DNA from: an uncultured Candidatus Saccharibacteria bacterium
GTDB lineage: Bacteria > Patescibacteriota > Minisyncoccia > Phycocordibacterales > DATDWN01
Length of the DNA stretch: 64,000 nt
Assembly: GCA_964469605.1 (NCBI GenBank)
Contig: CAYXZA010000001.1
Span: 71,274-135,273, forward strand
Reading direction: 5' to 3'
How positions within the stretch are numbered: position 1 is the first letter of the stretch; every line of letters starts with the position of its first letter. This document shows, piece after piece, positions 21,841-44,380 of the stretch. The position numbers were made by a program, and so were the translations under genes. Below the pieces are notes generated by a model that worked only from the letters and a program-made list of their open reading frames with translations, searched no databases and was not told the DNA's origin.

Positions 21841-21851
21841 GTTTTTAAAAA

Positions 21852-21962: not shown

Positions 21963-21971
21963 ATATTATTT

Positions 21972-22217
21972 TTATTTAATATTATTTAAACCAAAACTAA
22001 GTAAATCTTTTAAAATATTATTTTTATTTAAAATAATTTTGTTTTTTTTAAGAGGTGTTGTTTTTAAAACAACAAAACCTTTATTTAAAGAAAATTCTTC
22101 TTGTTTTAGTAGTATATTTGTATGTTTTTTTACTGAAAAAATAACCATTTCAAACAAATCAAAATCATTTTTAATTTTATTTTGATGTTTTTTTAGATAA
22201 GATTCTATATTAAACAT
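21972..22217 (-). CDS. small hypothetical protein downstream of dnaN
   Basis: 81-aa ORF whose start abuts the dnaN stop. Function not recognisable. Confidence 0.3.
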   Translation of the reverse strand: MFNIESYLKKHQNKIKNDFDLFEMVIFSVKKHTNILLKQEEFSLNKGFVVLKTTPLKKNKIILNKNNILKDLLSFGLNNIK

Positions 22218-23317: not shown

Positions 23318-23558
23318 ATTATTAATACTATTAGTCCTGTTTATTTGTGTAAAACTTATAAAAATGGCTTATTTTATGGTTTTTTTAATAAACAGTCTGT
23401 GGATAAATGTTGATTATATGTGTATATATTATGTCAATAAAAGATAATACACAAGTCTGTTTTTATAAATATTAACAAATCAACATATTATTCAGTTTTA
23501 AATCATAGGTTATTGATAACATATCCACATACATATACACATATATATCCACACCCAC
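23318..23558. promoter_or_regulatory. candidate oriC segment: DnaA boxes plus an AT-rich unwinding region in the dnaA-dnaN intergenic space
   Basis: Perfect box TGTGGATAA (23398-23406, reverse of TTATCCACA). Two 8/9 boxes ATATCCACA (23521-23529, 23545-23553). A ~80% AT stretch lies at 23440-23520. Confidence 0.5.
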
Positions 23559-23657
23559 CTTTTAAGTATGAAGTTTAGAACACGGATAAATTTTTGCTAA
23601 AATTTTCCTCGTGCTCGGTAGAGTCACTCGCAAGTTTCTAAACTTTATACTTAAAAG
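23559..23657 (-). repeat. palindrome-nested conserved element, copy C (inverted orientation)
   Basis: Reverse complement matches the copy A/B core with a compensatory G:C to A:T change in the terminal stem. Inverted arms 'cttttaagtatgaagtttagaa' / 'ttctaaactttatacttaaaag'. Lies 3' of dnaA, adjacent to the DnaA boxes. Confidence 0.75.
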
Positions 23658-25622: not shown

Positions 25623-26336
25623 ATGATATCAAATTTTTTTCACATAGTTTTTTATGATCCGCTTTATAATGGACTTATATTTATATTCAATATATTTCCT
25701 AGTTTAGATGCTGGTTTTGCTGTTATAGTTTTTACTATTATAGTTAAACTAATCCTCTTCCCTCTTTCCATAAAAGCAACAAAATCACAAATGGAAATGA
25801 AATCCATTGAAAATGATTTAAATTTTATAAAAGAAAAATACAAAGAAAATAAAGAAGAACAAGCTAAAAAAATTGTTGAACTTTATAAAGAGAGAGATAT
25901 AAACCCTTTTTCAGGTATTTTTGTTATCTTAATCCAACTTCCTATTATTATTGCTTTGTATAAGGTTTTTATGTCTTCTGGTTTACCAACAATATCATCT
26001 GATATATTATACTCATTTATACATATTCCAGATTATATAAATATGAAATTTCTAGGAATTTTAGATATTAGAAATAAAAATATTATTTTAGCTATATTAT
26101 CTGGAATATCAAGTTTTTTACAAGCTAAATATGCTCAAATCTCCACAAACACATCAACAGAAAAACAATCAGATTTTTCAAAAGCTATGAGTTTGCAAAT
26201 GAAGTTTGGTTTCCCTGTGTTAATGTTTATTATTTCCCTATCATTATCATCTGCTATTGCTCTTTATTTTATAACAAGCAATATTTTTACAATCTTTCAA
26301 GAGATTTATTTAAAAAGAAAAATTAGAAAATCTTAA
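25623..26336 (+). CDS. yidC: membrane protein insertase YidC/Oxa1 (short form)
   Basis: 'LILFPLSIKATKSQ..MK..Q..L..I.EKYK.N...Q.....LYKE...NPFSG' and five TM helices. Confidence 0.8.
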   Translation: MISNFFHIVFYDPLYNGLIFIFNIFPSLDAGFAVIVFTIIVKLILFPLSIKATKSQMEMKSIENDLNFIKEKYKENKEEQAKKIVELYKERDINPFSGIFVILIQLPIIIALYKVFMSSGLPTISSDILYSFIHIPDYINMKFLGILDIRNKNIILAILSGISSFLQAKYAQISTNTSTEKQSDFSKAMSLQMKFGFPVLMFIISLSLSSAIALYFITSNIFTIFQEIYLKRKIRKS

Positions 26337-27568
26337 TTTCCAATATTTAAACTCCATAAACTTCCACCATCTGCTTTGTTTTTAAATATTAAAAACAAGT
26401 TATCTTTATCTATATGTATCTCATCTATATCAATATTTTTACCAGATTCTTCTTTTAAAGAAATTATTTTCTCTGAAACATTTTCCTTTATGTTGTATTT
26501 CCATATTTCATCAACGAATCCAATAGTTCCAAAATACCAATTATCAATAGAGTTACTCTCTATATTACCTTCTGGAACAGCACAATAAACAACATCTTTT
26601 TCTTTAATACTAAACACACATTTTTCTGGAAAAGTTTTTGGATATAATGTTTTAATACTGTTTGCTTTAAAATTTAATACATAAAAATTAAATTCTGGAA
26701 GAGTTTCGTTAAATAGCATATTTTCACCTAATGAATCTGTGTTTGTGGTTAAACCATAAACTTCTCCTAAAATTTTCTTAAAATCACCTTTTGCTGATAG
26801 TCTGTATACATAACCAAAAGTTTGATAATTTGGTTTTGTTGTAAGTGTAATTAAATTATCATTTACAAATTGAGGAATAAGGTGTTTTAGTTTATCTGTC
26901 CAAATCTGAGTATTTTTATAATCAGGTGCTTTTGATATAAAACCATAAGAATCACCTCTTCTTATGAAATAAAATAAATTTCCATTATTTTGTCCAACTG
27001 AAACACTTTCTATAAGCGGACTAAGTGTTTTTACAGATAAAGATGACTCTGTTGAGGATGAATTTAAAATACTAATAAAACTATTTTCAACAGAATCATC
27101 ATCTTTTAAGTATTGTGCAACAAAAGAATTTCCTTTGTTTGTAAAATAAACTTTTTGAGTATTTAGTATTGTTTTATTTGATATTCTATCTTTTTTTTCT
27201 GAAAAAGTTGACGAGTCGTATATATGACCTGTTCCCTTTTCAACATATCTTATATAAAGACCATCATTTTTGGCAACAAAAGTAAATCCAGATACAGGAT
27301 CTTTTGATATGAGTCTAAGTTTTTGTTTATAATCCTCAACCTCTATTTCTGGCTCCTCTGGTTTAAATATTGGTTTTTCTGTATCCACTACATTTTCTGT
27401 TTGTCCAAAAGGAAAAAAATCTGTAATAGAAACTTTTTTACCACTTGCGGTTTTCTCGTCAGATTTGATTAAAAAATAATACAAACCAAGAGAAATGGCT
27501 AAAAGTGTCAATATTATTCCCGATATAATAAGTATTTTTTTCATATTATTTAAAATTGTACATGCCAA
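26333..27568 (-). CDS. exported hypothetical protein (last gene of T4SS-like operon)
   Basis: N-terminal TM anchor, 411 aa, start overlapping the upstream pilin-like gene. Confidence 0.5.
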   Translation of the reverse strand: MACTILNNMKKILIISGIILTLLAISLGLYYFLIKSDEKTASGKKVSITDFFPFGQTENVVDTEKPIFKPEEPEIEVEDYKQKLRLISKDPVSGFTFVAKNDGLYIRYVEKGTGHIYDSSTFSEKKDRISNKTILNTQKVYFTNKGNSFVAQYLKDDDSVENSFISILNSSSTESSLSVKTLSPLIESVSVGQNNGNLFYFIRRGDSYGFISKAPDYKNTQIWTDKLKHLIPQFVNDNLITLTTKPNYQTFGYVYRLSAKGDFKKILGEVYGLTTNTDSLGENMLFNETLPEFNFYVLNFKANSIKTLYPKTFPEKCVFSIKEKDVVYCAVPEGNIESNSIDNWYFGTIGFVDEIWKYNIKENVSEKIISLKEESGKNIDIDEIHIDKDNLFLIFKNKADGGSLWSLNIGN

Positions 27569-28365
27569 TGATTTCCAGTTGCAGTTCCATTTGCTCCAAT
27601 GACTTCATAAACAAAAATAACATCTTTACCGTTTATTTTTTTAGTTACTTTATCATTGTTTTGAGGGGTCGGTTTACCTAAAAATTTATTTAAATCATCT
27701 GATGGTTTCAAATCAACCTGACCTCTACCTACTGCATGTGTTTGATGGCCACCTTCTGTTCCGCCTGTTACCTGCACAAAACAACCAGAGCAATCTTTTT
27801 TTAATTGTATCAATCCGTCAATAGCACTTTTAGGCATACCTCCAACAGATGTACAACCTTGTGTCTGTGCTCCTATACAAGGGTTGTCGTGGTTTATTGA
27901 AATACCTCCATTTGTGAGTGATTTTCTAACATCTTCTTCACTATCTCCCCAACCTACAAAAACAAGATCGGCAGCTCTTTGTATATTTGGTTTTATGATC
28001 TTTAAATTTAAATTCAAAGAATTTGGATTTATTTCATAAATAATTGCATAAGATACCAGTATAAAAAATAATCCTTTTAGTGTGCTCCATATTTTATCTT
28101 TAATATCTGTCTTGGCAGAAGGGTTCAGACCTTTGGTTGCATATAAAAAACCTTGATAAACTAGCAATAAAAACGACCAAGTTATTCCTAATCCTAAAAT
28201 AAAGTAAAAGATTCTTGGAATAAATTTCTCTAAATCAACAGATTGACCTTTTTCATATACACCAGGCAGTGATGTTAGTGTTCTGTATTCTAGTTTAGCA
28301 AATGCAAAAGCTGGTATTGTTAAGAATATTACAAACATTATTATTTTAATATAGTTTTTTTTCAT
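27550..28365 (-). CDS. VirB2/TrbC-pilin-like N-terminal module fused to a Cys/His-rich C-terminal domain
   Basis: Signal peptide (…PAFAFA) plus two hydrophobic helices separated by a short basic loop gives the VirB2 topology. This is followed by a ~150-aa domain 'NHDNPCIGAQTQGC...GGHQTHAVGRG'. Confidence 0.4.
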   Translation of the reverse strand: MKKNYIKIIMFVIFLTIPAFAFAKLEYRTLTSLPGVYEKGQSVDLEKFIPRIFYFILGLGITWSFLLLVYQGFLYATKGLNPSAKTDIKDKIWSTLKGLFFILVSYAIIYEINPNSLNLNLKIIKPNIQRAADLVFVGWGDSEEDVRKSLTNGGISINHDNPCIGAQTQGCTSVGGMPKSAIDGLIQLKKDCSGCFVQVTGGTEGGHQTHAVGRGQVDLKPSDDLNKFLGKPTPQNNDKVTKKINGKDVIFVYEVIGANGTATGNHWHVQF

Positions 28366-29426
28366 TATATTGAACTATTATTTTTATCTTCTTGTGGTTT
28401 TTGAAAATCTACTGTGATTGAACTTTGTGCACCTTGCATAATATTGGAGCGGTTTATGAAATTAACATCAATTCTAGATACTCCGAATGTATCACCTACT
28501 TTTTTAAAAATTCTATTTACGACATTTTGGTTATCATTAACTCCTAATCCATTTATAGACCAGGATATTTCAAGATCTGTTGGTTTTTGAATGCTGAAAA
28601 AATATGGAATGGAGTATATTTCTTTTTCCAAATTATCATTTACTTTCATTACATTCAGTGCTTTTTCTGTTTTTATACCTAAAAGAGGATCTTTTTGATA
28701 TATATAAACAACTGGATCTGAAGGAGATAAAACGACTGATCCGTGTGCTATCTGGTTTGTTTTAGGATCTTCTGCTTCAACTTCTATTTCCATATCTCTA
28801 CCTAGTATACTACTTTTTATTTGTATAAAATATTTACCATAACCACTTACATTTTGTATTGCATCGCCATTATTTGACCATCTGTATATCATTTTTTCTC
28901 TGGGTATTTCCTCTGTGCCGTTATATATATGCGGTGTTGCATATATATAAACCAATGATTCCCTTGTGTATAGTGGTTTTCCTTTAAAAAATGGTGGTGT
29001 ATATGTATCAGCTTCCCATATTAGATCAAGAGATGTTGGTTTTATGTTAAAATCTTTTTGAACAAATCTCCCGTCTCCTGTATTTATTTTTATGGAAATA
29101 GATGTGCTATCTTTTTTTAAAATAAAATTTAATTTAGTTTTTCCTGTGCCTTTCAGTACAGTTTTACTATCTATAATCCACTCTATATATGCTTCGTTTA
29201 AATCTGTTGCGTAGCTTTCAAGAGATATAAAAACATTATTATTTTTTTCTGGATATTCTGGGTCTATATTAACAACTATACTATTATCTAATTCATCAAA
29301 TTGTGCATAAGAAATTTTAGAAAATGTCAGTATAGATATTGTTATTAAAAATATTAAAAATAAGTATCTAAGCATTAAAATTATTTTAACATAAAAATTA
29401 TCTTTAATTAAATAATATACACACAC
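28365..29426 (-). CDS. exported hypothetical protein
   Basis: 353 aa with an N-terminal anchor, beta-rich, translationally coupled to the downstream gene. Confidence 0.5.
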   Translation of the reverse strand: MCVYYLIKDNFYVKIILMLRYLFLIFLITISILTFSKISYAQFDELDNSIVVNIDPEYPEKNNNVFISLESYATDLNEAYIEWIIDSKTVLKGTGKTKLNFILKKDSTSISIKINTGDGRFVQKDFNIKPTSLDLIWEADTYTPPFFKGKPLYTRESLVYIYATPHIYNGTEEIPREKMIYRWSNNGDAIQNVSGYGKYFIQIKSSILGRDMEIEVEAEDPKTNQIAHGSVVLSPSDPVVYIYQKDPLLGIKTEKALNVMKVNDNLEKEIYSIPYFFSIQKPTDLEISWSINGLGVNDNQNVVNRIFKKVGDTFGVSRIDVNFINRSNIMQGAQSSITVDFQKPQEDKNNSSI

Positions 29427-29430
29427 TTAT

Positions 29431-29533
29431 CCTATAAAGATATAATTTTAGAGACTTGCGAGGTTGACTGAACCGAGCACGAGGAAAATTTTAGCAAAAA
29501 TTTATCCGTGCTCTAAAATTATGTCTTTATAGG
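29431..29533 (+). repeat. palindrome-nested conserved element, copy B (core 29446-29517)
   Basis: Core is near-identical to copy A. Inverted arms 'cctataaagatataatttt' / 'aaaattatgtctttatagg'. Sits inside the T4SS-like operon between the 166-aa gene and the 353-aa gene. Confidence 0.75.
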
Positions 29534-29595
29534 ATAAACTTCAATATACATAACTTATAAAAATCACAACTTTAAAATGTAAATACACTTGCTCT

Positions 29596-30096
29596 TTAAG
29601 GGTTTTCTACCATTTCTTGATTTTGTCTACTGAATATAGCTTCCCTACTCTTATTTGATAGATATTGAAGTGATTTGTTTTTAATTTCTGTCTTTTTCTC
29701 TTGCCACTTCTTTTTTACTTCTCTTTTTACAAGAGCTTTACCAGCTTCTTTAACACTTGTTACACCAACCAATTCTTGTGCTTCAACTTCGGCTATTCTC
29801 TTTATAACCATTGCTGTAAATGTTGGCAGTGCATTTATAACCGGTATAAATTCAATAGCTGAACATATAATACCAGTTTTATTGAAAACATTTACACCAT
29901 TTAACATAAACCAAAGATAAAAAATAAAATAAACCACAACATCTATAATTTCATTTGCAATTTCTCCAAACGGTGGAGCGAAACTTAAACCAAATTGTAA
30001 TAAATCAATAAAACCAGCAAAAGATATCATTAAAAATTTATGTTTAAATTTTTTTTCACCCCCACCATCTTCCTTTTTTGGTTTATTGTTGTCCAT
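29596..30096 (-). CDS. small polytopic membrane protein
   Basis: 166 aa with three or four TM helices, overlapping the VirB4 stop. Confidence 0.5.
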   Translation of the reverse strand: MDNNKPKKEDGGGEKKFKHKFLMISFAGFIDLLQFGLSFAPPFGEIANEIIDVVVYFIFYLWFMLNGVNVFNKTGIICSAIEFIPVINALPTFTAMVIKRIAEVEAQELVGVTSVKEAGKALVKREVKKKWQEKKTEIKNKSLQYLSNKSREAIFSRQNQEMVENP

Positions 30097-31891
30097 TTGA
30101 TTCTGATTTTGCTTTCTGAATAGCCAGTATTTGAGACGGATCAGATGTTATTATTTGATCTTCTGTATATGAAGCAATGATTTTTATTGCCACATGTTTA
30201 AGACCTGCAAAAAATATACCCTCCCCTACACTAGATTCTAGTAAAAGGTATTTTTCTTCGTCAGTAAGGTTAAATGTTTGTTGTAGTTTGTCTATAGATG
30301 TTGGACTTTGTTTCAAAAGAAGTTGAAGTGAAGAGTTTGTGATAATAGGCATACCGTATGGTGATTTTAGGAAATCATCAACATCTTGAGTTATTGTTGC
30401 TAGTCCCAAGAAATATTTTCTACCTCTTTTTGCAAGTGATAGTAAAAACGATGCTGTATCTTCGGATTTCATCATCCACCAAGCCTCGTCTATAACTAAA
30501 AGTCTTTTTCTTAGATCTTTTCTTATTTCAGCCCATATAAAGTGAGTTATGATATACATAGCTATTGGTTTTAATTCATCTTCCATATCTCTTACAGAAA
30601 AGACAATTAGTTTTTTATTTATATCTATGTTTGATGGCCTGTTTATAAAACCAGCCCAAGTTCCTTTTGTGTATTTTGTTAGTCTCTGTGCCAAAGATTC
30701 CCCTCCTTCCATACCAGATAAGACAAGTTCAAAATCTGACAAAAGTGGTGGTTCTATGTTTGTAAAATCTGAATCAGGAGTTATGTCTTTAAGAGCATAA
30801 GTTTCTGTTATTGCTCTGTCTATGATGGCATCTTCTTCTGGACTTAAACCTCCAAGCATTATCCTAAAAAGACCCACAAGGTTTATAATATTGCTTCTAA
30901 GTATATTTGCAAAAGATTCTCCTTCTGTTGGTTTTGGTAGATCAAAAGGGTTTATATGATGTTCTGAGTTTAGAGATATGTTGAAATGTCTTCCTCCAAC
31001 AGCTTCGGCCATATATTGATACTCATTTTCTGGATCAAGAATAATAATATTTGTATCAAACATCAAAGATCTTAGTATTTCTAGTTTTGTTGCATAAGAT
31101 TTTCCAGAACCGGATTTTGCAAATGTTATAGAGTTGTAGTTTTCAAGTGAAAATCTATCAAACAAAACAAGCGATGAGTTGTGTCTGTTTATTCCATACA
31201 GTATACCTTTATCAGATGTTAGGTCAAAAGAGACAAACGGAAAAAGACTTGAAAGTGGTGATGAGTTTAGTTTGCTATAAACAGAAAGTGAATCATTTCC
31301 TGTTGGGATGATTGTTTTAAATGCTTGTTCTTGTTGAAAAAGTGTAGGTTTAACATATACTAATTTGGATTCAAGTATGGATTTTATTTCAGATTCTACT
31401 TTATCGAGTTCACCGTCTGATTCTCCGTATATGGTTATATAAAGTCCAACATTAAATAGTTTTTCTTGTGCTTGTTGCAGTTGATCCCTAAGGTTCTCCA
31501 AATCTTGATATGCTGTATCTAACATAGGGTTTCTAACCAAACCTTTTTGTTCCCTTACCATTATTTGACTTTGAACCTCGGCAACTTTTTTTTGAAAACT
31601 TTTTAATGCTTGTGATGTTTCGATTGGTTCTACATATATAGCAACATCAAAAATTTTATCAAGGTTTATTATTGGTGCAAACCAACTTTCTGCCAAATAT
31701 CTAGGATATGATATAACAAAAAAACTTCTTGCTATTTTTTCACCCAAAAGTAGCTGTTTTGGTGTTATTTGTAAGGCACTAGGAGCCATAATATCTTGAA
31801 GCTCTAATGTTCCAGATTTATATATCTCTTGTGGTAAGAGAGACTCATTTTCCTTTACTTCTTCTTTTTTAAAAAAATCAAATATTGACAT
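30083..31891 (-). CDS. virB4: VirB4/TraE/PrgJ-type conjugative ATPase
   Basis: Walker A 'FAKSGSGKSY', Walker B 'RLLVIDEAWWMM'. 602 aa matches the Gram-positive-type VirB4 size. Confidence 0.8.
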   Translation of the reverse strand: MSIFDFFKKEEVKENESLLPQEIYKSGTLELQDIMAPSALQITPKQLLLGEKIARSFFVISYPRYLAESWFAPIINLDKIFDVAIYVEPIETSQALKSFQKKVAEVQSQIMVREQKGLVRNPMLDTAYQDLENLRDQLQQAQEKLFNVGLYITIYGESDGELDKVESEIKSILESKLVYVKPTLFQQEQAFKTIIPTGNDSLSVYSKLNSSPLSSLFPFVSFDLTSDKGILYGINRHNSSLVLFDRFSLENYNSITFAKSGSGKSYATKLEILRSLMFDTNIIILDPENEYQYMAEAVGGRHFNISLNSEHHINPFDLPKPTEGESFANILRSNIINLVGLFRIMLGGLSPEEDAIIDRAITETYALKDITPDSDFTNIEPPLLSDFELVLSGMEGGESLAQRLTKYTKGTWAGFINRPSNIDINKKLIVFSVRDMEDELKPIAMYIITHFIWAEIRKDLRKRLLVIDEAWWMMKSEDTASFLLSLAKRGRKYFLGLATITQDVDDFLKSPYGMPIITNSSLQLLLKQSPTSIDKLQQTFNLTDEEKYLLLESSVGEGIFFAGLKHVAIKIIASYTEDQIITSDPSQILAIQKAKSESNGQQ

Positions 31892-31893
31892 GT

Positions 31894-32532
31894 TTATTGT
31901 GTTTTAATTGGTTTTTCTGTATCCCCTGGATTAAATATCTTATAAAATAATTCTATAAGCTCTTCTGTTCCAAGACTTGCAAGTCTTAGTCCGCATCTTG
32001 ATAATCCTTGTGATACGGAGCTTATTCTTTGTTCTAGTTGAGATTTGTTTTCTTCAAAATTTTCCAACTTTCTCTTAATATCCTCTGCTGTTTCTTTTTT
32101 ACCTATTAGTGATGCTATTTTCATACTTCCACCTTGTATAATTGCTGGATTGTATTCAATAACAACAAAAAAACTTTTAGTCATTATGTTTGTTGATTCT
32201 GTAAAACTTTTTATAAAAGAAATGTATTCTTGTGTTTGTATTTTTAACAAATCATTTACCTGTTCTTTGTATCTTTCTTCTAGTAGTGCTATATACGGTC
32301 TTATATCCAGTCTTCTTGATTGTATATATATCTGCACAGGAAAATCGAGTGAGTTTAAAAAATCTTGAAATTGATAGATTATAGCCTCTCTTTCACCGTC
32401 TGATTTTAAAGAGAAGTTTAAAGATGATACTAGTAAAATAGAACGGATAGATCCGTCTTTTAAAACCAATACTCCGTCACGAACTTCTTTTATTGGTATA
32501 AAATCTTGAGTTGGTTTAGAGCTGTTTGCCAT
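31894..32532 (-). CDS. hypothetical cytoplasmic protein of the T4SS-like operon
   Basis: 212-aa ORF tightly packed between the VirB4 and PrgI-like genes. Confidence 0.5.
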   Translation of the reverse strand: MANSSKPTQDFIPIKEVRDGVLVLKDGSIRSILLVSSLNFSLKSDGEREAIIYQFQDFLNSLDFPVQIYIQSRRLDIRPYIALLEERYKEQVNDLLKIQTQEYISFIKSFTESTNIMTKSFFVVIEYNPAIIQGGSMKIASLIGKKETAEDIKRKLENFEENKSQLEQRISSVSQGLSRCGLRLASLGTEELIELFYKIFNPGDTEKPIKTQ

Positions 32533-32570
32533 AAAAAAATTATAACATATTTATTTTTTTATAAATATGT

Positions 32571-33005
32571 TTACAATTTATTTGATAAATCTTTTTTGTT
32601 TGTATTGTCTTGTTGTTTTATATCAAGACTCCAAGACAGCTCTTTTAACTTACTATCTGAAAGTTTTGGAACATAAATATCATTTGTAGATGTTTTACTT
32701 TGCTGATTTGTTACTATTTCAATTTTATCTTCTTTTTTCCAAACATATAGTTTTTTATTGAGATAAAATTTTACAGCAGACTCCAAAAGATCTTCAAACG
32801 GTTTGTCGTTGAATCTATAAAAAGCTAGTGATAGTGCTAAAACAGTTATTAAAACAAGTGCAATTAGTCCAAATATTGATGGTAATAGCTTATAAAAGAC
32901 AAAACCCATTCCAGCACCTCCTGCTAGGTAAATAAATTGCTTAAATGTTAAATTTGCAATAAGTTTGTCTTCTATCTCTATAAATTGTGGAACTTGAAAT
33001 CTCAT
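32571..33005 (-). CDS. PrgI/VirB3-like small membrane protein
   Basis: 'FIEIEDKLIANLTFKQFIYLAGGAGMGFVFY' matches the PrgI-family start (k.e.kl.g.fT.rQl..l..g), followed by two TM helices. Confidence 0.55.
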   Translation of the reverse strand: MRFQVPQFIEIEDKLIANLTFKQFIYLAGGAGMGFVFYKLLPSIFGLIALVLITVLALSLAFYRFNDKPFEDLLESAVKFYLNKKLYVWKKEDKIEIVTNQQSKTSTNDIYVPKLSDSKLKELSWSLDIKQQDNTNKKDLSNKL

Positions 33006-33014
33006 TTTTTTAAT

Positions 33015-33692
33015 TTATTCTAACGGTTCTCTATAAGGGTCGCTTGTGTATGTTTTTTGAATAAAAGGTTCTTTTGATGTTGTTGTGATGTTGTTTAGTT
33101 TTTGATTGAAATCAAAAGGTTTTGGATTTTCCTGTTTGGTCTCTGGTTTGGTTGTTTGCTGTGTGTTGTTTGTATAAACCGCATCCAATTCCCCATCTTT
33201 TTTTCCAACCTCTTTCAAAATCTCTTGCGGTTTTGTTTCTGTGGTCGGCATATCCTCCTTCTCTACTATCTGATTTTCTTTTTCTGTGAAAATTTCATCT
33301 GTAGGTAGGTTATCTGGTGGAACATCAAGAGAATTGTATACAAAATTTTCATTTTCTGAAACATTTTCTTCTTTTGGTTCTAGTATTTCTTCTATTTTTA
33401 CCAATATTGGTTTTATTATTCTTTCATTTATTTCTTCGTATAACTGGTTTGCAAGAACAGAAGAAATAACCAAATCATCTTTTAATTCATTTTTTAATTC
33501 TTCTATTTCTCCACCACCGATTAAAGTTATCCATATTTGCCTTATCATAGACTCTCTTTGGGTGTTTGATAAAGAGTATTTTAAAGCTATCTGACCTGCT
33601 GTTTGTTGCCATTTTGAAGATGTTAAAATCCTCCTGTTTTCCTCGGGTAATTCTTCTAAATATTGGTTTATAAGTAAATCAAATTCGTTCAT
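33015..33692 (-). CDS. hypothetical acidic protein
   Basis: 225-aa ORF in the operon. Confidence 0.5.
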   Translation of the reverse strand: MNEFDLLINQYLEELPEENRRILTSSKWQQTAGQIALKYSLSNTQRESMIRQIWITLIGGGEIEELKNELKDDLVISSVLANQLYEEINERIIKPILVKIEEILEPKEENVSENENFVYNSLDVPPDNLPTDEIFTEKENQIVEKEDMPTTETKPQEILKEVGKKDGELDAVYTNNTQQTTKPETKQENPKPFDFNQKLNNITTTSKEPFIQKTYTSDPYREPLE

Positions 33693-33697
33693 TTTGT

Positions 33698-36094
33698 TTA
33701 TTTATCTTTTTTACCACTGTCACGAAGTGCATCCTTTGCAGCTTTCCTCAATGCTTTAACTCTATCTTCTGATCTCATAAATACCCTACCTAATCTACCT
33801 GCTCCACTTAGATCATCGGCTTTTTTTGACAAATATCGTTGACCAGGAGTTTCTACACTACTTTTAATAATATTTCCATACCTATCCTTCTCCTCTTTTT
33901 GACCAATAACATTAAGAGCCTCTATTTCTTTTACTGTCAAAAATCTATCGGCAACAGATTTAATTTTTGCTTCTAGTTCTCTATAGCCTGATTCAGCTTT
34001 TGTTTTTGCGATTCTCTGTTCCTCCTCTGTATCTTGAAGTTCTGTTAGCTTAGCTTCTATTTCGTTCATTTTTTCTGCTGTTCGGTATATCTCTATATCT
34101 TGAAGCCTTTGTGTGATTTTAGCTATTTTACTTGTAGTTTCTCTTCTCTTATCTTTTTTCTTTGACAGTGATTGACGAAGTGCTTCTCTTTCTTGTCTTA
34201 TATTAGCTGGCATTAGTATTTCATCATATTTTGAGCTTATTTCATCTATTTGTTTTTGTATTTCCGCTATTTCAGTAGTTTGTTCTATTTCTGTAGCTTT
34301 AGTTTCTTTTAGTGTATCTGGAAGGTCATCCAAATCTTTTTTAATTTTATCAACCTCTCTTTTCTTTTCAAGAGCAGCTCTTCTTGCTGTATTAAAATCA
34401 TCTGTTGCTTTTCTTGCTTTTGCTTTTTCTACTTCAAGTTCAGCAGCACTTTCTTTCCTTAATCGTATAGCTTCAAGTCTTCTAGCTTCATCACCTTCCT
34501 CTTTAGCTTCTTTTAGCTTCTTTTCAGCTTCTTTTTTCTCTTCATCTGTTGGTTCTAGATAATCTCTAGCAAATGCTATATCCCCTTTTGTTCCCATAAT
34601 TCCTGTTCCTAAGATTCCATTTCTTTCAATTCTTCTTTTTTGTTGACCAGCAAATCCACCTTCACCAAACTTACTAAATCCTAAAACATTTCCCGCTTTG
34701 CCAAACTCAATTTCACTATAACTCTCAATATTTTTGGCGGTTGCTGTATTTCGCATATCAAATTGAGTTTCTGATGCCGTTTTCCCTAGTTTAAGCATAT
34801 TTTTTGAAAGAAAACCTTTAAAACCACCACTTTCAGCACTCCTTTTAAGTGAGTCGCTCTCCGATATAGATTTTCCAGCTCTTCCAACTGTATTTGTTAA
34901 AGCTGTGCTATAAGCACCAGCTATGGCACCACCTGCAACCCCACTGCCAAATGCAGTTGCTTTGGATATTGATTCACCTACTATTTTATGTCCTTTTTTT
35001 GCAATCTCTCTTGACTGTTTAAGTGATGTTGTTATTAAACTTATAATCATAATATAGTTTATAAGAACAGAGAGTGTTGATCCTGTTGGTTTTTCCGCAA
35101 TTTTAACAAAATCAGCACCACCATTTTCCGGTTGAAATAAAAATCCAGGAGCACTCATTATGGTAAGTATGACCCAAGTTAAAAGGAAATAAACTATTGG
35201 CCAAGTTGCTTGACCTTGTAGTGTTCCCCAAAATTGTTTGGAATATTTATCGAATGGTTTTATAAAAACAAACCCAATTGGCGATACTGCAAGTAAAACT
35301 ACGAAAGTGATGTATCTGATAATAAACATCATAGATATAACAAAAAATATAACTGCAACTATAAGCATAAGTATTGCTCCCATAACATAGATAGCTATTT
35401 GTTGTCTATTACTGATTAAAACTTTTGCTGAATCTTCTACTGAAGCTATAATTGTTTTTAGGTTTAGAAGAGATGCAAACATATTTGATATGCTTTGTGT
35501 TCCGTTGTTTGTAATAGCATTGTATAAAAATACTGTAAATATGTTTGAGATATCTATGGCAACTTTTGTAATAAATAAACTAAAATTAACCGAAAGAGCG
35601 GTCAATATAATATGGCCTATTGTTTCTGTAACATTTCCACCTAAACCAAAAATTGATTTAAAACCTTCATATAAAAGTAGGAAAATAAAAGAAAGGTTTA
35701 TAAGGTTTCTAATCATATTCCATACTGCTATTATTCCACTGGCTCCATTTTCAATATTTGAAGATATCCACTGATTATTGTTTTCTGATGTTGACCCTAT
35801 TAATGTATATTTCAATACCCAATCAAGAATTCCTCCGGATGCAACCAATATCCAATTTGCTGGTTTGAAGACTAGGAAGTACATAGTTTGGGATGATAAA
35901 AATCCAGGTAAATCTAATAATTTACTTGCGGTTGGTGAACCTTTTGCTGCCATAACCCCATTGGTTATTATTGAACTGATAAATTCAGCCTGGGCATTTG
36001 TATTTTTTGGTTGAATTAAAAAAATATTTGATGCTATGAAAAATATTATGAAAATGTTTTTTAAAAATTTTTTCATTTTGATTATGGTGTGCAA
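33698..36094 (-). CDS. VirB6/TrbL-like polytopic membrane protein with long C-terminal charged coiled coil
   Basis: Signal peptide, seven or more TM helices over ~400 aa, then a K/E/R-rich helical tail (~300 aa). Confidence 0.5.
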   Translation of the reverse strand: MHTIIKMKKFLKNIFIIFFIASNIFLIQPKNTNAQAEFISSIITNGVMAAKGSPTASKLLDLPGFLSSQTMYFLVFKPANWILVASGGILDWVLKYTLIGSTSENNNQWISSNIENGASGIIAVWNMIRNLINLSFIFLLLYEGFKSIFGLGGNVTETIGHIILTALSVNFSLFITKVAIDISNIFTVFLYNAITNNGTQSISNMFASLLNLKTIIASVEDSAKVLISNRQQIAIYVMGAILMLIVAVIFFVISMMFIIRYITFVVLLAVSPIGFVFIKPFDKYSKQFWGTLQGQATWPIVYFLLTWVILTIMSAPGFLFQPENGGADFVKIAEKPTGSTLSVLINYIMIISLITTSLKQSREIAKKGHKIVGESISKATAFGSGVAGGAIAGAYSTALTNTVGRAGKSISESDSLKRSAESGGFKGFLSKNMLKLGKTASETQFDMRNTATAKNIESYSEIEFGKAGNVLGFSKFGEGGFAGQQKRRIERNGILGTGIMGTKGDIAFARDYLEPTDEEKKEAEKKLKEAKEEGDEARRLEAIRLRKESAAELEVEKAKARKATDDFNTARRAALEKKREVDKIKKDLDDLPDTLKETKATEIEQTTEIAEIQKQIDEISSKYDEILMPANIRQEREALRQSLSKKKDKRRETTSKIAKITQRLQDIEIYRTAEKMNEIEAKLTELQDTEEEQRIAKTKAESGYRELEAKIKSVADRFLTVKEIEALNVIGQKEEKDRYGNIIKSSVETPGQRYLSKKADDLSGAGRLGRVFMRSEDRVKALRKAAKDALRDSGKKDK

Positions 36095-37533
36095 GGTGTT
36101 CCAGAACCATCGCTTAGAGTTCCGTCAGGGTTACATACAACCTTTTGTCCGTTTCCTGATGGGTCGGTTGCAACACCAAGATTGTATTTTTGTTGAGTAT
36201 TTGCAACTTCTTCATCAACCATTTCATCTATCTGTGTTCTACTGATATAGTTTCCAGGTCTAACATTTCTTATGTCTGTTACATCTGTTGTTACTGTTCC
36301 ATCTGCATTTGTCACTGGTTTTATAAACTCATCTACACCAGCTGGGATGCTGTTATCTATTCTTTCTAGGTTTCTTGCATCTTCTCTTGTCCCAAGCGAA
36401 TCTTCATCTTTGCTTAAAATTTCAGAAAGAAGTGATTTTCTTTCATCTGGTTTTTTCTGTGAGAGTCCACGAAGACCACTTACTGCACCTCCTATTGCTC
36501 TTCTAAACATTTGATTCATAAGGGCACTGGCTATTTCATTTATCTCATCTGCTATTTCTAGTTGGCTTATACTAGAACCCAAAACTTTACCAAGTTGCCC
36601 TTCTATGATTGATCCAGGTGTCACTATCTCCTTTTGATCTTCTGGACAATACTCTTCTGATGGATCATAGATGTCATAAGCTGTTATAGATGTTGTTGCT
36701 GCGGTATTTGCACCTATAAAATTACCATTATCGTCATATGGAGACCCTTGGGCCCCTGTTTCAGCTGGTTTTTGATCAACAGCATTAGGATTAGCTTCAG
36801 TTATTGTTCTCCAGCCACTATGCATACCGTCTTTTTTACATCTTTCAAAAGACATAAATCCCTTTCCCCATCCTTGCTTTTTCTCATTATTTTTTTGGTT
36901 TGATGTTATTTGGGTATAAATAAAATCTTTTGACTGATAAAATGCACCATAAGGGTTATTTTCGTCATTTTGTGTTATTTCAAACCAATCATCCCAATTA
37001 TCCATAGCATTTTCACCTATATTTTCATAATTTTTCTTTATTTTTTCAAAAGTACAAACAGGAGGCCTTGGTCCTTGAAGATATGTTTTTATAAGTGCTA
37101 TTCTAACTTGTAGTTCAAATGGTCTACAAAGTCCTATCAATTGTTTTCCAACAACATTTTCCATAAGTAGATCTCCTTGATTTATAAAAAATCTCTCCGG
37201 GTTTGTTATAAATGCAGGATTTCCTTTAAAACCATTGTTTATCCAGTTGACAGTTTCAGCTGTCATACCTTTCAATATATTTTTTGCCAATACATAAGCT
37301 ATTCCATCAAGGAAGTTATCTTTTCCAACTTGGACAACTTGACCTGTTGCTATAATAGGTTGTGTTCCAAAAGATGTTACCGGTTGTGCTATTGCGCTTA
37401 TGGTGTTTTGAGATAAGTTTGCAGGATCAATAAATACCCAAAAAGCTTCTGTTTTTTTGTTTGGATATATTAAAATAATCACAAGAAAAACAATAAAAAA
37501 TATTTTTTTTCTAAAAAAAGGATTAAAATTCAT
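36082..37533 (-). CDS. exported hypothetical protein
   Basis: 483 aa with an N-terminal anchor, overlapping the VirB6-like start. Confidence 0.5.
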   Translation of the reverse strand: MNFNPFFRKKIFFIVFLVIILIYPNKKTEAFWVFIDPANLSQNTISAIAQPVTSFGTQPIIATGQVVQVGKDNFLDGIAYVLAKNILKGMTAETVNWINNGFKGNPAFITNPERFFINQGDLLMENVVGKQLIGLCRPFELQVRIALIKTYLQGPRPPVCTFEKIKKNYENIGENAMDNWDDWFEITQNDENNPYGAFYQSKDFIYTQITSNQKNNEKKQGWGKGFMSFERCKKDGMHSGWRTITEANPNAVDQKPAETGAQGSPYDDNGNFIGANTAATTSITAYDIYDPSEEYCPEDQKEIVTPGSIIEGQLGKVLGSSISQLEIADEINEIASALMNQMFRRAIGGAVSGLRGLSQKKPDERKSLLSEILSKDEDSLGTREDARNLERIDNSIPAGVDEFIKPVTNADGTVTTDVTDIRNVRPGNYISRTQIDEMVDEEVANTQQKYNLGVATDPSGNGQKVVCNPDGTLSDGSGTPCTP

Positions 37534-37600
37534 AAAATATATATAAAATTATATAACAATCAATAATTTTTATCATCAAAAACTGTTGAAAACCAAAAAG

Positions 37601-38476
37601 TTATTTTTTTGAAAAATAATCAGACATTTTAATCATAATAATAGATATTTTCTGAGCATTTAACTCATAACTGTTTAGATATATATATGATTTCAATGGA
37701 TCATCCAAGATGTATTTTAAATTTTTAATATCTTCTTTTAGTGAATTTATAGTATTTAGATAAACTAAGTGAAGCCCGACATTATCCTCTGGCACAACTA
37801 CTTTCAGTGTCTCGTCTACCACTTTTTGATATGAGTCTATGATCGGATCAAGTTTTTTCAGTTCGTCTCTGTTACCACTTTTTATGGCATTTTGAGCTAT
37901 TTGCATTTCATTTTCTTGTTTTTTTATTGTAGCTGAGAAAAATGCTGTGTCTATCTCTTTCTCATACTGTTGTTTGGTTTGGTTTTTTGATATTTTTATG
38001 TCGTTTATATCAAACGGAACTGGTTTTGTCATTGCGACATTTTCTGTTGCATTGTTTGCTATTTGGGTTATCTGATCTGCTGTTAAGGATGTGTTGTTTT
38101 GTTTTGCATAAAGATAGTTTGTAAAAAAAGATTTTGCAAAGTTTTCTGTCATTGAGGTGTTTTCCGGCGGATTATCAGATTCTGTATTTTTTTGTGTAAA
38201 AACAAATTGGTCATTTTTCTCATTGCTGTCATCTGTCCCGTCTCCGTCGGTATCTTTTTTATTTGGATCAAATCCTAAAAGAGATTCCTCCCAGTCTTTT
38301 AAACCATCTCCGTCGCTATCTAACTCTGTTTCTCTTGCTATTTGAGTCTTGATCTCGGTTACTTTTGTTTCTTGTTTAAAATTTTGTTGTTTTTTGTATA
38401 TTAGAGTTGAAACAATAACTGCCAAACAGATTATAAAAATGGCTATAACTTTTGAATGAGTGTAAAACATATACAA
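37601..38476 (-). CDS. membrane-anchored protein with calcium-binding (thrombospondin-type-3-like) Asp repeats; first gene of operon
   Basis: N-terminal TM, then 'DSDGDGLKDWEE...DPNKKDTDGDGTDDSNE' DxDxDG repeats. Confidence 0.5.
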   Translation of the reverse strand: MYMFYTHSKVIAIFIICLAVIVSTLIYKKQQNFKQETKVTEIKTQIARETELDSDGDGLKDWEESLLGFDPNKKDTDGDGTDDSNEKNDQFVFTQKNTESDNPPENTSMTENFAKSFFTNYLYAKQNNTSLTADQITQIANNATENVAMTKPVPFDINDIKISKNQTKQQYEKEIDTAFFSATIKKQENEMQIAQNAIKSGNRDELKKLDPIIDSYQKVVDETLKVVVPEDNVGLHLVYLNTINSLKEDIKNLKYILDDPLKSYIYLNSYELNAQKISIIMIKMSDYFSKK

Positions 38477-38532: not shown

Positions 38533-40611
38533 ATGAAAAAAATTATTTTATTTATTTTTATTTTGTCTGTGTTTTTTGGTTCGAAAGTTTATTCAGAATC
38601 CTGCACAGGAGATATTTTCGGTAGTGCTGATGCATCTAAAACTTGTGCAGAACTTGCAGAAAAAGAGGCAAGAGACAGAGGTTACTCTGCTAGTTGTTCT
38701 GTCAGCACCCAAGGTGCTCCAAACGGTTCAACTCTGTATTCCCCCGTTTGTACTATAAACGGTGTAGATGGTTTTGGTGCAAATCTTCTTTCTGGTTGGA
38801 ATAGTTCAAATGGAACAGTTGTAAATTCTGGTTGGAATACTCTAAGCACAGAAATGAGAACTTTTAATAATTCTCCTAGGGGTTCTTCTATAACCTCAAC
38901 ACTTTTAGCCACTTCTTCTAGAGCAACAACAACTGACTCTATAAGAGAGATAGAAAGAAGAATCGAACAGATAAGACAGCAAACTTTTTCTGTTTCAAGA
39001 GCAATGTATAAAAATCAACTTGAAGAGTTGGTTAAACAAAATCCAAGTTTAAGGTCAACTGTTGATACGATTTTGTCAAAACCTGCTTTGGGCAGTATTG
39101 GAACACTGGATTTTAATCCAAGTGAGGTTAAAAGAGGAACAACAACAACTTCTTCCTCAACAGGTTCTGGAAAATCTTGCTTTAATTTTTCTAGAAATCT
39201 AAAATCTGGCGATTCTGGAGATGATGTTTCTGCTTTGGCTGATATTTTATACGAAGAAGGTTTGTATAGTGGAAATGATACCAAAACTTTCAATAATGAA
39301 ATACAAGAAGCTGTAAATGATTATCAACTTAAATACAAAGCTGATATTTTAGACAGGGCAGGACTAACTTCACCTACTGGGGTTGTTGGAAATCTAACAA
39401 GAGATCATCTAAATAACAGATGTAGGACAGGTTCAGCTTCAACTGTTGATGATCCTATAACAAATGCTCCTGTAAGCATAGATCCAAATAATATGTTGTT
39501 TAGGTTTGTTAAAATATCTACAAAAGAAAACGGTTGGGTATCTTGGAGAGAGATAGAACTTTATGAAAAGAAGGTTGTATCAACAACTTCACCTGCAACT
39601 GTTGGAACTTGTTATGTTTTACCAAATGGTAGCACAAATTGTAATGGTGGATCTTCTGTTTCAACCACAACTATTGAAACAAAGATCAATATATTGCCTT
39701 CAAAGATTACAGCTCAATCTTTTATATTCTCTGGTAGTCCTGCAGATGTTGCACCTTCAAAAGCTGTTGATGGAAATATTGAGACCGCTTGGAATGCTGG
39801 CGAAACAAATATTCCTTGTAGAACTCCGGGTACAAGGGGCTGTCCTGGTGCTGTAAGGGAAGCTGATTTTGTTATTGATCTAGGAAAGATAAAAAATATT
39901 TCTAGAATCCGTTTGGTTGAAAATGGAGATACTATTACCGAAGTTGCAACTGTTTATGTAAGCAACAATGGCAAAGATTATACAGAGTTAACAAAGTTCA
40001 TCGCCCCTACTGCTGATAGACAAAATTTGGATTTTCCAAAGAAAATAAATCCAAATGCAAAACCGCCAGTTATAGCAGGAGCAGTTGTTTCAAAACAACT
40101 CCCTACTGCTGACAATCCAAATATAAACTCAATAAGATCTGGTATTGTAAACGAGCTTTACAATATGGCCCTGTCCTTACCGGCATCTACTACTGGACAA
40201 GCTGTTTTAAAGTTGAAACCAACAATGTATGGATACTCACCTGCTGGAAACTTCCAATATGTTTGGAGGGTTGAAAATGCAGATTATATAAAAATTGAAA
40301 AGAGTATAGAGGTAGATCCTTCTTTGGGAGTATTAACAGAAACTGAAAGTGGTGGTGGTTGCAAGATTGATAAAGATGCAAGAGATGCCTCTATGTTCCC
40401 AATGCTTGATTCTAGCATATCCAGTTTAAATATGTCCCCACTCGTGTTGTTTGGTTATAGATTTACAAATCCATCTTTGGTTTATGCTCCTATATCAGAG
40501 TATGCAAATACTTGTAATATTGGTAAAAGATACATATCAACTATGACTGCATATAAATCTGATTCAAATAAGGTTGCAACATTTAAGTTTATAATAGAAG
40601 TCAGTAAGTAA
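38533..40611 (+). CDS. large exported Ser/Thr-rich protein with peptidoglycan-binding-like and discoidin (F5/8 type C)-like domains
   Basis: Signal peptide; 'GDDVSALADILYEEGLYSG...FNNEIQEAVNDYQLKY' resembles PG_binding_1; 'AVDGNIETAWNAGE' resembles the discoidin motif. Confidence 0.6.
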   Translation: MKKIILFIFILSVFFGSKVYSESCTGDIFGSADASKTCAELAEKEARDRGYSASCSVSTQGAPNGSTLYSPVCTINGVDGFGANLLSGWNSSNGTVVNSGWNTLSTEMRTFNNSPRGSSITSTLLATSSRATTTDSIREIERRIEQIRQQTFSVSRAMYKNQLEELVKQNPSLRSTVDTILSKPALGSIGTLDFNPSEVKRGTTTTSSSTGSGKSCFNFSRNLKSGDSGDDVSALADILYEEGLYSGNDTKTFNNEIQEAVNDYQLKYKADILDRAGLTSPTGVVGNLTRDHLNNRCRTGSASTVDDPITNAPVSIDPNNMLFRFVKISTKENGWVSWREIELYEKKVVSTTSPATVGTCYVLPNGSTNCNGGSSVSTTTIETKINILPSKITAQSFIFSGSPADVAPSKAVDGNIETAWNAGETNIPCRTPGTRGCPGAVREADFVIDLGKIKNISRIRLVENGDTITEVATVYVSNNGKDYTELTKFIAPTADRQNLDFPKKINPNAKPPVIAGAVVSKQLPTADNPNINSIRSGIVNELYNMALSLPASTTGQAVLKLKPTMYGYSPAGNFQYVWRVENADYIKIEKSIEVDPSLGVLTETESGGGCKIDKDARDASMFPMLDSSISSLNMSPLVLFGYRFTNPSLVYAPISEYANTCNIGKRYISTMTAYKSDSNKVATFKFIIEVSK

Positions 40612-44167: not shown

Positions 44168-44380
44168 AGTATTTTAACATAGTATTTTTATTTTTAATTA
44201 TAATTATAAATAATAATAAAAATGTTTGGTTAAAAATACTCTATAAATAATTGACATGTTGTCATGTATTATTGTATAATATGTGTGTTATTAGTAGCCA
44301 GTGGCAAAAGCCTTAAATTTCCAAGCTGGTATCTATAACAAGCCCTTTGCTACGGCATTGGGTTCTCTACGGAGAAAAAA

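Follow-up and report, generated by a model that had tools for sequence, protein, structure and literature searches.

The stretch of patescibacterial DNA analysed here (64 kb in all, referred to as the window) carries at 26333-38476 an operon of 11 genes. It includes a split gene for a VirB4 ATPase, a gene for PrgI/VirB3 and a single pilin gene; it has no DNA-processing module and it occupies a fixed position between ksgA and yidC-dnaA-dnaN. We consider it likely that this locus is a vertically inherited chromosomal type IV secretion system (T4SS) of a Paceibacteria-class (Zambryskibacteria-like) member of the Patescibacteria, derived from the conjugation machinery of monoderm bacteria (MPF_FATA, CD1110/CTn2-like) with loss of the DNA-processing and coupling modules. 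A type IV coupling protein (T4CP), a relaxase and an integrase were not found and the core-genome position is fixed, so the locus does not appear to be a self-transferring element. An initial annotation, made from the DNA letters alone, had proposed a T4SS-like machine used for something other than self-transfer; this proposal is supported by matches above the curated cutoffs for VirB4 and PrgI and by a dnaA-adjacent gene order that is shared by 43 of 44 related loci.

A split VirB4 motor of the monoderm type

Genes are denoted here by g and the length of their product in amino acids (aa), unless the product can be named. The 602-aa protein is securely assigned to the CD1110 type of VirB4 ATPase, a monoderm type. 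It matched the NCBIfam model conju_CD1110 at an E-value of 9.9e-109 and 364.6 bits (cutoff 325) and exceeded the Pfam cutoffs for P-loop_TraG (88.8 against 25.8 bits), AAA_10 and DUF87. The initial annotation had recognised VirB4 by its Walker A motif (GSGKS, at residue 261) and Walker B motif (IDEAWW, at residue 467) and had suggested a profile search as a check; the curated CD1110 cutoff is passed in that search, and the identification stands. The open reading frame (ORF) covers positions 178-733 of the 752 in the VirB4 model.

The N-terminal domain of VirB4 is assigned with equal security to the separately encoded 212-aa protein (g212, TrsD-like), which had been left unnamed. Its NCBIfam matches are to the N-termini of VirB4 models (VirB4_plasma at 2.9e-13, VirB4_CagE at 2.1e-9 and TrsD at 9.7e-7, all below the full-length cutoffs), and BLASTP (E 1e-8) places it colinearly on a clostridial VirB4 of 797 aa, over residues 20-197. 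The g212 stop codon lies 2 nt ahead of the VirB4 start. A third component, the 144-aa protein, is securely predicted to be PrgI/VirB3, the partner that anchors VirB4 at the membrane. It has a transmembrane segment at residues 44-62, and the Pfam PrgI model (PF12666; E 1.2e-12, 48.7 bits, cutoff 27) bears out its first description as PrgI/VirB3-like.

A scan of species-representative genomes yielded 581 VirB4 relatives, and the best 80 were from Zambryski-, Taylor- and Kaiserbacteria and other Paceibacteria (loci L001-L080). Synteny and identity counts given below use the 44 loci with full flanks among these best 80 of 581, and sets of orthologues have 22-23 members. The split between g212 and VirB4 is kept in 44 of 44 loci, with g212 identities of 53-71%; PrgI/VirB3 was also found in all 44, at 42-55% identity. 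Across the 80 loci the VirB4 protein is 76-86% identical to its Paceibacteria homologues, and it is at most 36% identical to the best plasmid VirB4 in 3,110 plasmid records, the 25 best of which are all from monoderm hosts. Judged by these identities rather than by a tree, the protein groups with the VirB4 homologues of Patescibacteria and not with those of conjugative elements.

A fixed position in the core genome

The operon has dnaN (22217-23317), dnaA (23681-25021) and yidC (25623-26336) on one side and ksgA (40616-41377) on the other. In 43 of the 44 Paceibacteria loci the genes follow one colinear order, uvrD-ksgA-[11 genes]-yidC-dnaA-dnaN, which is the outcome of the comparison of synteny across genomes of the Candidate Phyla Radiation that the initial annotation had recommended. 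ORF lengths are conserved at each of the 11 positions (22-44 species genomes). Median identity over the 44 loci was 79% for VirB4, 63% for g212, 61% for DnaA, 49% for PrgI, 48% for DnaN and 25-30% for the envelope proteins, the gap between VirB4 and DnaA being somewhat overstated because the loci were picked by VirB4 similarity. The pattern of sequence conservation shows VirB4 to be under strong purifying selection and better conserved than DnaA. Conserved synteny together with this constraint identifies a core-genome locus passed on by vertical descent; it is neither a mobile element nor a remnant of one. There is also a steep gradient of conservation between the cytoplasmic motor and the extracytoplasmic surface parts.

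Pfam detected no T4CP, relaxase, integrase or transposase among the 40 ORFs (133-783 aa) of the window, the 11 operon proteins likewise matched no T4CP or relaxase family, and tblastn searches with a clostridial VirD4, R388 TrwB and R388 TrwC found nothing in the window or within 10 kb on either side of the 80 related loci. The scope of the T4CP and relaxase searches was the 64-kb window and these 80 loci. Within this scope they confirm the earlier statement that the window has no VirD4, relaxase or integrase. Flanking direct (att-like) repeats were not found around the operon.

The rest of the window encodes housekeeping proteins (RuvAB, Fpg, PolA, a PilB-like ATPase, PBP1, UvrD, NusA, trigger factor, ClpP and RNase Y) or consists of ORFs without a family. 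The PilB/GspE-type ATPase (T2SSE, 392 bits; 13977-15650) lies 10 kb from the T4SS and points to type IV pili; the genome thus holds both of the filament systems, type IV pilus and T4SS, that are known as essential in Saccharibacteria.

Layout of the operon

The ORF list and translations give 11 ORFs, all on the minus strand, with products of 291, 483, 798, 225, 144, 212, 602, 166, 353, 271 and 411 aa in the order of transcription. These, with a repeat copy inside the operon and a divergent neighbour, are as follows.

37601..38476, minus strand: g291, the first gene; N-terminal membrane anchor and extracytoplasmic domain with Asp-rich TSP3-like repeats
36082..37533, minus strand: g483, Cys-rich envelope protein, secreted or anchored, with a VirB5/TrbJ-like N-terminal motif
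33698..36094, minus strand: g798, polytopic protein with a charged coiled-coil tail, candidate for an 'extended VirB6'-like protein; probable start ATG 36076
33015..33692, minus strand: g225, acidic cytoplasmic protein with a C-terminal Y..DPYREP motif
32571..33005, minus strand: PrgI/VirB3 (144 aa), Pfam PF12666
31894..32532, minus strand: g212, detached VirB4 N-terminal domain, TrsD/TraD-like
30083..31891, minus strand: VirB4 (602 aa), C-terminal motor part, CD1110/MPF_FATA type
29596..30096, minus strand: g166, small polytopic membrane protein with a charged tail
29433..29545, no strand assigned: copy of a dispersed repeat, non-coding, about 110 nt, within the g166-g353 spacer
28365..29426, minus strand: g353, predicted tandem Ig-like beta-sandwich domains; probable start ATG 29375
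27550..28365, minus strand: g271, VirB2-like pilin and C-terminal domain with a zinc-hydrolase motif
26333..27568, minus strand: g411, the last gene; membrane anchor and weak propeller signals; probable start ATG 27544
38533..40611, plus strand: discoidin-domain secreted protein (692 aa), divergent neighbour; possible accessory, with low confidence

The co-directional minus-strand cluster is therefore where it was first placed, with 11 genes and a non-coding repeat in place of the twelve genes first counted, the repeat ('copy B') having been listed among them. Its boundaries had been described as overlapping or abutting; this holds for most junctions, where the extremes are an overlap of 19 nt and a gap of 38 nt, and fails for gaps of 67 nt between g291 and g483 and of 169 nt between g166 and g353. 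The true starts are probably internal methionines in g798 (M7), g353 (M18) and g411 (M9), and the database protein corresponding to g798, at 792 aa, agrees with the M7 start. The 3' end of g411 overlaps the convergent yidC by 4 nt. Scans of the region for promoters (70 promoter-like sites against 68.6 expected) and terminators (10 terminator-like sites against 5.1 expected, sd 2.3) gave counts at or near background and defined no operon boundaries. The view that most components cannot be annotated proved too pessimistic: seven of the 11 receive at least a domain-level description.

A pilin fused to a putative peptidase domain

The product of g271 has a signal peptide and two hydrophobic helices, followed by a C-terminal domain of about 140 aa. 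Its N-terminal part is securely predicted to be a VirB2-like pilin, the single one in the window. Taken alone, g271 scored 18.9 bits against T4SS_pilin (PF18895), below the cutoff of 26.6; among 23 positional orthologues, the same model matched 21 (best E 2.6e-9) and TrbC/VirB2 matched 2. A local pilin hidden Markov model (HMM) gave g271 98.6 bits as its sole match within the 64-kb window. The orthologue matches and the local HMM uphold the original description of g271 as a pilin-like fusion protein.

The C-terminal domain is probably a LAS-type zinc peptidase. It contains the motif H210-x7-D218 ... H266-W-H268 and four conserved cysteines, and 76 homologues share without exception the residues C, C, C, E, D, H and H. 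The pattern H-x7-D ... H-x-H is typical of LAS (M15/Hedgehog-type) zinc hydrolases. Peptidase_M15_4 matches 2 of 23 orthologues (E 0.0018). A profile of the domain gave 24 matches in the PDB at E<=10, all but one of them to Hedgehog N-domains on the zinc-site motif, at E-values of about 0.1 that are not significant singly; a deep profile of full-length g271 gave no PDB match at E<=1. No phage endolysin was found for the domain by tblastn, and the operon proteins contain no SLT, CHAP or lysozyme domain that would represent a cell-wall hydrolase of another kind.

One pilin gene per locus is the rule, seen in 67 of the 71 sources with a pilin match, and across the 80 related loci the pilin carries a C-terminal extension that is long (median 172 aa) and differs between species. 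The LAS-like domain is fused to the pilin in 18 of 75 cases and almost never stands alone otherwise; elsewhere among the related loci the extension is a domain unrelated to it and often helical. In a library-wide search, 586 cluster representatives were found at E<=1e-10; among the 150 best, the majority align over both domains, and the fusion is thus a large family and no local accident. For this Paceibacteria lineage one may picture a sole pilin that is always extended by a species-variable cassette, which in about a quarter of species, this one included, would be a LAS-type zinc peptidase, and a pilus that would breach the host envelope. We think this picture unlikely to hold. If it did, a module that cuts cell walls or binds the host would be exposed on the filament or at its base, and cassette swapping would track host range; with g483 (below) as a candidate for a VirB5-like tip, such a pilus architecture would be one that is unknown in any monoderm or diderm T4SS.

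A candidate platform and a candidate adaptor

The long product of g798 has about six hydrophobic segments within residues 1-360, followed by a charged coiled-coil tail of about 300 aa (24% K+R, 22% D+E). The gene lies upstream of PrgI with g225 between them, and VirB6 is placed likewise in clostridial clusters and in Southlakia. An AlphaFold2 model of residues 7-460 had a pLDDT of 62, rising to 70-85 in the transmembrane core. When this model was compared by Foldseek with 350,542 PDB chains, the top two were chains of the R388 stalk, 8rtd_L and 7o3v_J (E 0.035 and 0.086, probability 0.98 and 0.87 respectively; TM-scores 0.26-0.36), and hhalign aligned g798 with TrwI/VirB6 over 55 columns (E 6e-4, 29% probability). 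A profile search of PDB sequences returned nothing meaningful. The gene was found by tblastn in 43 of 44 loci. By its position, its topology and these weak fold and profile matches, g798 is probably an 'extended VirB6'. Precomputed matches to PF19590 on two g798 homologues were not reproduced with Pfam and were not used.

The product of g225 has no transmembrane segment and no family match in Pfam or NCBIfam. All loci examined have an orthologue at this position, with 158-390 aa. The protein evolves fast, yet its C-terminal Y..DPYREP motif is kept in at least 60% of 23 orthologues. The motif is possibly a docking peptide, in which case g225 would be an adaptor that docks on the ATPase or on the platform.

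Envelope proteins and a discoidin-domain neighbour

Four further products of the operon are directed to the envelope. That of g291 had been described as a Ca-binding Asp-repeat membrane protein. The membrane segment (one, at residues 8-26) and the Asp-rich motifs (DSDGD at 53, DTDGD at 75) are present; the TSP3_bac match that would speak for calcium binding, at E 0.0013 and 19 bits, is below the 25-bit cutoff, and the Asp motif occurs in 9 of 23 orthologues only. Positional orthologues of 250-415 aa occur in related loci, and tblastn found g291 in 28 of 44 at about 25% identity.

The g483 protein begins with a signal-like transmembrane segment at residues 5-23, followed by the motif EA|FWVFIDPAN. 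Many of its orthologues have at the mature N-terminus a (P)V(F)D motif that is like the 'AQ|GIPVFDGT' of R388 TrwJ. DUF4141 (30-bit cutoff) scores 21.2 bits in g483 and at most 29.8 bits (E 3.8e-7) in close homologues, and the TrbJ N-terminus is a weak NCBIfam match. We regard g483, which was found in 42 of 44 loci, as a candidate pilus-tip or stalk protein with a VirB5-like N-terminus. Against the VirB5 assignment stand an AlphaFold2 model that is unusable (pLDDT 45.5) and the lack of an hhalign match to full-length TrwJ; nothing beyond the N-terminal motif ties g483 to VirB5. A search of PDB sequences with the g483 profile found nothing meaningful.

The g353 and g411 proteins, both found in 44 of 44 loci (at 24-34% and 21-36% identity), are candidate scaffolds. 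In g353 a transmembrane or signal segment at residues 15-33 is accompanied by a W..NG motif that occurs three times; the profile of 23 orthologues matched the Ig-like domains of phage T4 Hoc (E 6e-5), and individual orthologues matched BiPBP_C (8 of 23) or Ig_3, PKD_3 and MG4 (2-3 each). It may form a wall-spanning or surface scaffold of Ig-like domains. In g411 a transmembrane segment also lies at residues 15-33. The window protein has no family match and its profile found no relative among PDB sequences; in at most 4 of 23 orthologues there were weak matches to the propeller families DPPIV_N, DUF5050 and PD40, and g411 may therefore be a beta-propeller-like envelope scaffold. The small protein g166 has about three transmembrane segments as well as a charged tail; its motif E.IP....LP.WT is conserved, and most loci have a positional orthologue; neither Pfam nor NCBIfam gave it a family and the pilin HMM did not match it.

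The divergent gene at 38533-40611 encodes a protein with matches to F5_F8_type_C (Pfam, E 5e-9) and PG_binding_1 (E 7.7e-5). A relative of it is detectable in 9 of 44 loci only. A discoidin-domain ORF like it lies inside the operon, between the orthologues of g483 and g798, in two related loci (L039:4700-6600 and L050:4300-5900), and in one case the g483 orthologue has a discoidin domain of its own. These are hints, held with low confidence, that the discoidin protein may be a glycan-binding accessory of the T4SS.

Proposed mechanism, cargo and rival explanations

We propose that a VirB4 hexamer would be held at the membrane by VirB3 on the VirB6-like platform formed by g798, and that it would extract pilin from the membrane and polymerise it to build a tube or pilus across the wall. 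The wall-spanning and distal parts would consist of the Ig-like g353, propeller-like g411 and Cys-rich g483 proteins. The zinc-peptidase-like domain of the pilin would cut the peptide stems of peptidoglycan, either that of the cell itself (the role of VirB1) or that of the host. The resulting structure would contact the host cell of the episymbiont and would be needed for growth, not for self-transfer.

Reviews treat the role of the patescibacterial T4SS as unknown (PMC11665869, PMC12857230). Our preference, a tentative one drawn by analogy, is that the machine would take up cytoplasmic material of the host, nucleic acids above all. It is favoured because the ComB and Ced systems are import T4SSs without a T4CP, because ComEC is dispensable in Southlakia while the T4SS is essential (PMC10633639, PMC12857230), and because the lineage is unable to synthesise nucleotides; a role of the T4SS in nucleotide uptake has been put forward (PMC11665869). 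In a cultured Microgenomatia strain, uptake of host RNA was reported along with tubular connections that were suggested to be T4SS pili (bioRxiv 10.64898/2026.06.21.733656).

Several points weigh against the reading of the locus as a non-conjugative T4SS with such a role, in addition to the effect of locus selection on the VirB4 comparison. A T4CP or relaxase may sit outside the 64-kb window, which is part of a contig of at least 138 kb, distant VirD4 homologues being reported as common in Patescibacteria. The homology of g798 to VirB6 is weak: the Foldseek E-value is 0.035, the hhalign probability is 29%, g798 and 22 orthologues have no TrbL/VirB6 match in Pfam or NCBIfam, and hhalign found no match between g798 and the clostridial VirB6, CD1112. 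The original VirB6/TrbL-like label of this protein thus keeps its polytopic topology and charged coiled-coil tail and finds no family model behind it. VirB8, PrgL and TcpC had no match in the 11 operon proteins, and tblastn with the R388 VirB8 was negative, although g353, g411 and g291, whose folds were not predicted, may hide a structural analogue; a VirB8-like protein is rare outside the class ABY1 (PMC12102498). VirB9 and VirB10 families likewise had no match among the operon proteins, so that of the profile searches initially suggested for VirB8, a VirB1-like hydrolase and VirB9/10 analogues, none returned a family and only the LAS-type motif on the pilin was found. That peptidase assignment itself draws on the motif and on sub-threshold matches, and a domain of about 140 aa on every pilin copy may clash with a canonical pilus unless it is cleaved. 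Finally, the function suggested for this Paceibacteria locus is extrapolated from Saccharimonadia and Microgenomatia.

Among the alternatives, a machine that exports toxins or host-manipulating proteins without a T4CP, as Bordetella Ptl and Brucella VirB do, is possible if doubtful. Protein-secreting T4SSs that lack a T4CP exist (PMC12857230), effector delivery has been suggested for the Saccharibacteria T4SS (PMC11665869, PMC10633639), and the operon encodes the secreted proteins g483, g353, g411 and g291. However, Pfam and NCBIfam revealed no candidate for an effector or an immunity pair in or beside the operon, no substrate receptor is present, and proteins exported by Sec in a monoderm are already outside the cell, so that a two-step route of the Ptl type would bring no obvious gain. 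We hold it to be quite unlikely that the structure is an organelle of adhesion or contact alone, a pilus with variable cassettes that binds and possibly digests the host wall while no substrate passes. The single pilin gene in 67 of 71 sources, with its long and species-differing extensions, would suit such an organelle, as would the discoidin and Ig-like surface domains associated with the operon; adhesion and motility are, however, already provided in Saccharibacteria by type IV pili (PMC12857230), for which the window has a PilB-like ATPase, and the extreme conservation of VirB4 and the presence of a VirB6-like channel candidate suggest more than the assembly of a filament.

Two further explanations invoke conjugation, past or present. 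Functional conjugation or DNA export, with a relaxase and coupling protein encoded elsewhere in the genome, is very improbable. It would be in keeping with the 64 kb inspected and with the finding that T4CP genes often lie far from virB4, Patescibacteria genomes holding 5,713 VirD4 homologues (PMC12102498). Yet relaxases are present in only 103 of 3,035 Patescibacteria genomes (PMC12102498), none was detected in the window or around the 80 related loci, the distant T4CP of Southlakia is non-essential while its T4SS genes are essential (PMC12102498), and the core-genome position is fixed and vertically inherited. The idea of a decaying remnant of an integrated conjugative element (ICE) is hardly tenable. 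The missing conjugation modules and the dispersed repeat inserted in the operon are what one might expect of it, but the 11 ORFs are intact with lengths conserved in 22-44 species genomes, conservation of VirB4 exceeds that of DnaA, neither an integrase nor att-like repeats were found at the flanks and the GC content is like that of the flanks. The conserved core-genome synteny effectively refutes it, and a phage-derived origin was rejected on the same ground.

The reading as a vertically inherited T4SS has a wider interest. The Patescibacteria account for a large part of the diversity of bacteria, and other microbes serve them as attachment partners. In the single species tested the chromosomal T4SS proved essential, and its cargo might be effectors, DNA, RNA or nutrients. 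The present locus is a clean Paceibacteria example, with 11 conserved positions, a motor constrained beyond DnaA and a pilin with exchangeable extracellular domains. It offers concrete starting points for structural biology and genetics in a class known in culture from a few cocultures only, and the pilin-cassette architecture is the detail worth pursuing.

Dispersed repeat and other features of the window

The repeat within the operon is one of five copies in the window (21846-21968, 23558-23657, 29433-29545, 46954-47053 and 52452-52551) of a nested palindrome of about 110 nt. The copies share a conserved core (CACGGATAAATTTTTGCTAAAATTTTCCTCGTGCTCGG...GTCAC.CGCAAGT); the outer stem differs between copies and stays self-complementary. 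Two copies flank dnaN and dnaA. Folded as RNA, the repeat reaches -45.5 kcal/mol (z = -5.05). It belongs to no Rfam family, the only matches being far below the gathering scores, and its core was absent from the 80 related loci. In three related loci checked by hand the g166-g353 spacer is about 0-60 nt, against 169 nt here, and the long inverted repeats in the operon region all belong to this dispersed repeat. The operon copy is probably not part of the machine, and it may influence read-through or mRNA stability. The family could be a miniature inverted-repeat transposable element (MITE)-like or repetitive extragenic palindrome (REP)-like element, or a small RNA.

The GC content of the window is about 30% and the composition of the operon does not differ from that of its flanks. 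Two GC-rich islands (44001-46000 and 52001-54000; 0.42 against about 0.30) hold ORFs at 44381-45507 and 52982-53937 that have no Pfam match, and gave no Rfam match at the E-value threshold either; they may be genes of foreign origin or structured RNAs that were not recognised. The 3' end of a tRNA-Lys gene (9152-9196) recurs 338 nt downstream (9490-9534, 93% identical), within 9096-9534, with a second repeat pair (9221-9272 and 9390-9441) between the two copies. Integration events leave tRNA-fragment duplications, and this arrangement could be one of them. An inverted repeat of 59 nt (86% complementary) has its arms 57 kb apart at 5352-5410 and 62484-62542, both intergenic, and may represent another repeat or small-RNA family.

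Comparison with known systems

The initial annotation noted that related machines are reported in small-genome episymbionts, and the literature agrees (PMC12102498, PMC10633639). Ultra-small Patescibacteria have this relaxase-less chromosomal cluster beside the replication origin. VirB4 is present in 2,417 of 3,035 Patescibacteria assemblies as a monophyletic clade nested in MPF_FATA (Quinonero-Coronel 2025, PMC12102498). TrsD, VirB3, VirB6 and VirB2-like genes lie nearby, and in the Paceibacteria the cluster is near dnaA, dnaN and ksgA (PMC12102498). The closest point of reference is Southlakia epibionticum, whose cluster SEML1_0006-0019 is essential for epibiotic growth, has no coupling protein or relaxase and includes a pilin array (Wang 2023, PMC10633639). 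Both systems have an MPF_FATA-derived VirB4, a separate TrsD-like protein, PrgI/VirB3 and a PF18895 pilin, and in both a very large polytopic VirB6-like protein with a long soluble tail is encoded upstream and a peptidoglycan hydrolase candidate downstream of virB4. Both clusters, without relaxase or T4CP, have dnaA, dnaN and ksgA close by at the beginning of the chromosome. Southlakia has six short pilins and an NTF2 VirB8-like protein, whereas the present locus has a single pilin with a C-terminal fusion and no recognisable VirB8, and its accessory proteins are unlike those of Southlakia in being Ig-like, propeller-like and Cys-rich. Essentiality has been shown in Southlakia only.

The conjugative cluster of Clostridium botulinum pCDC3875 (CTn2/CD1110, MPF_FATA) shares the VirB4 family. 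Its gene order, VirB6 - PrgI - (small protein) - VirB4 - (small protein) - wall hydrolase, is also that of the present locus, with candidates here in the VirB6 and hydrolase places, and a separate TrsD like the N-terminal part of VirB4 is also found in pGO1 (PMC12102498), which with pIP501 provides the TrsD/TraD comparison. The clostridial clusters differ in having VirD4 (CD1115), a MOB relaxase, a location on mobile elements and SLT/CHAP hydrolases, and in lacking a VirB2-like pilin; VirB4 identity to them is 26-36%.

ComB serves DNA uptake, Ptl and Brucella VirB export proteins, and Ced imports DNA. The present locus resembles these systems of Helicobacter pylori (ComB), Bordetella, Brucella and the archaea in having a VirB4-family motor without a T4CP or relaxase (PMC12857230, PMC11665869). 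ComB, Ptl and Brucella VirB are, however, diderm MPF_T systems with a VirB7/9/10 outer-membrane core, and such a core was not found here. The CedB model scored 33.8 bits against a cutoff of 700, over the shared P-loop region only, and no ComB-like or CedA-like partner was recognised in the operon. With the R388 Trw stalk there are weak similarities: the membrane domain of g798 matches stalk chains and TrwI over 55 columns, and the start of g483 resembles the 'IPVFD' of TrwJ. Unlike their R388 counterparts, g798 has over twice the length of TrwI and a coiled-coil tail, and g483 is like TrwJ in its N-terminal motif only.

The system is thus one that is already described in the literature, and its earlier interpretation is correct rather than new. 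To that description the present locus makes modest additions: a widespread fusion of pilin and putative peptidase with species-variable cassettes, and a VirB5-like motif in g483.

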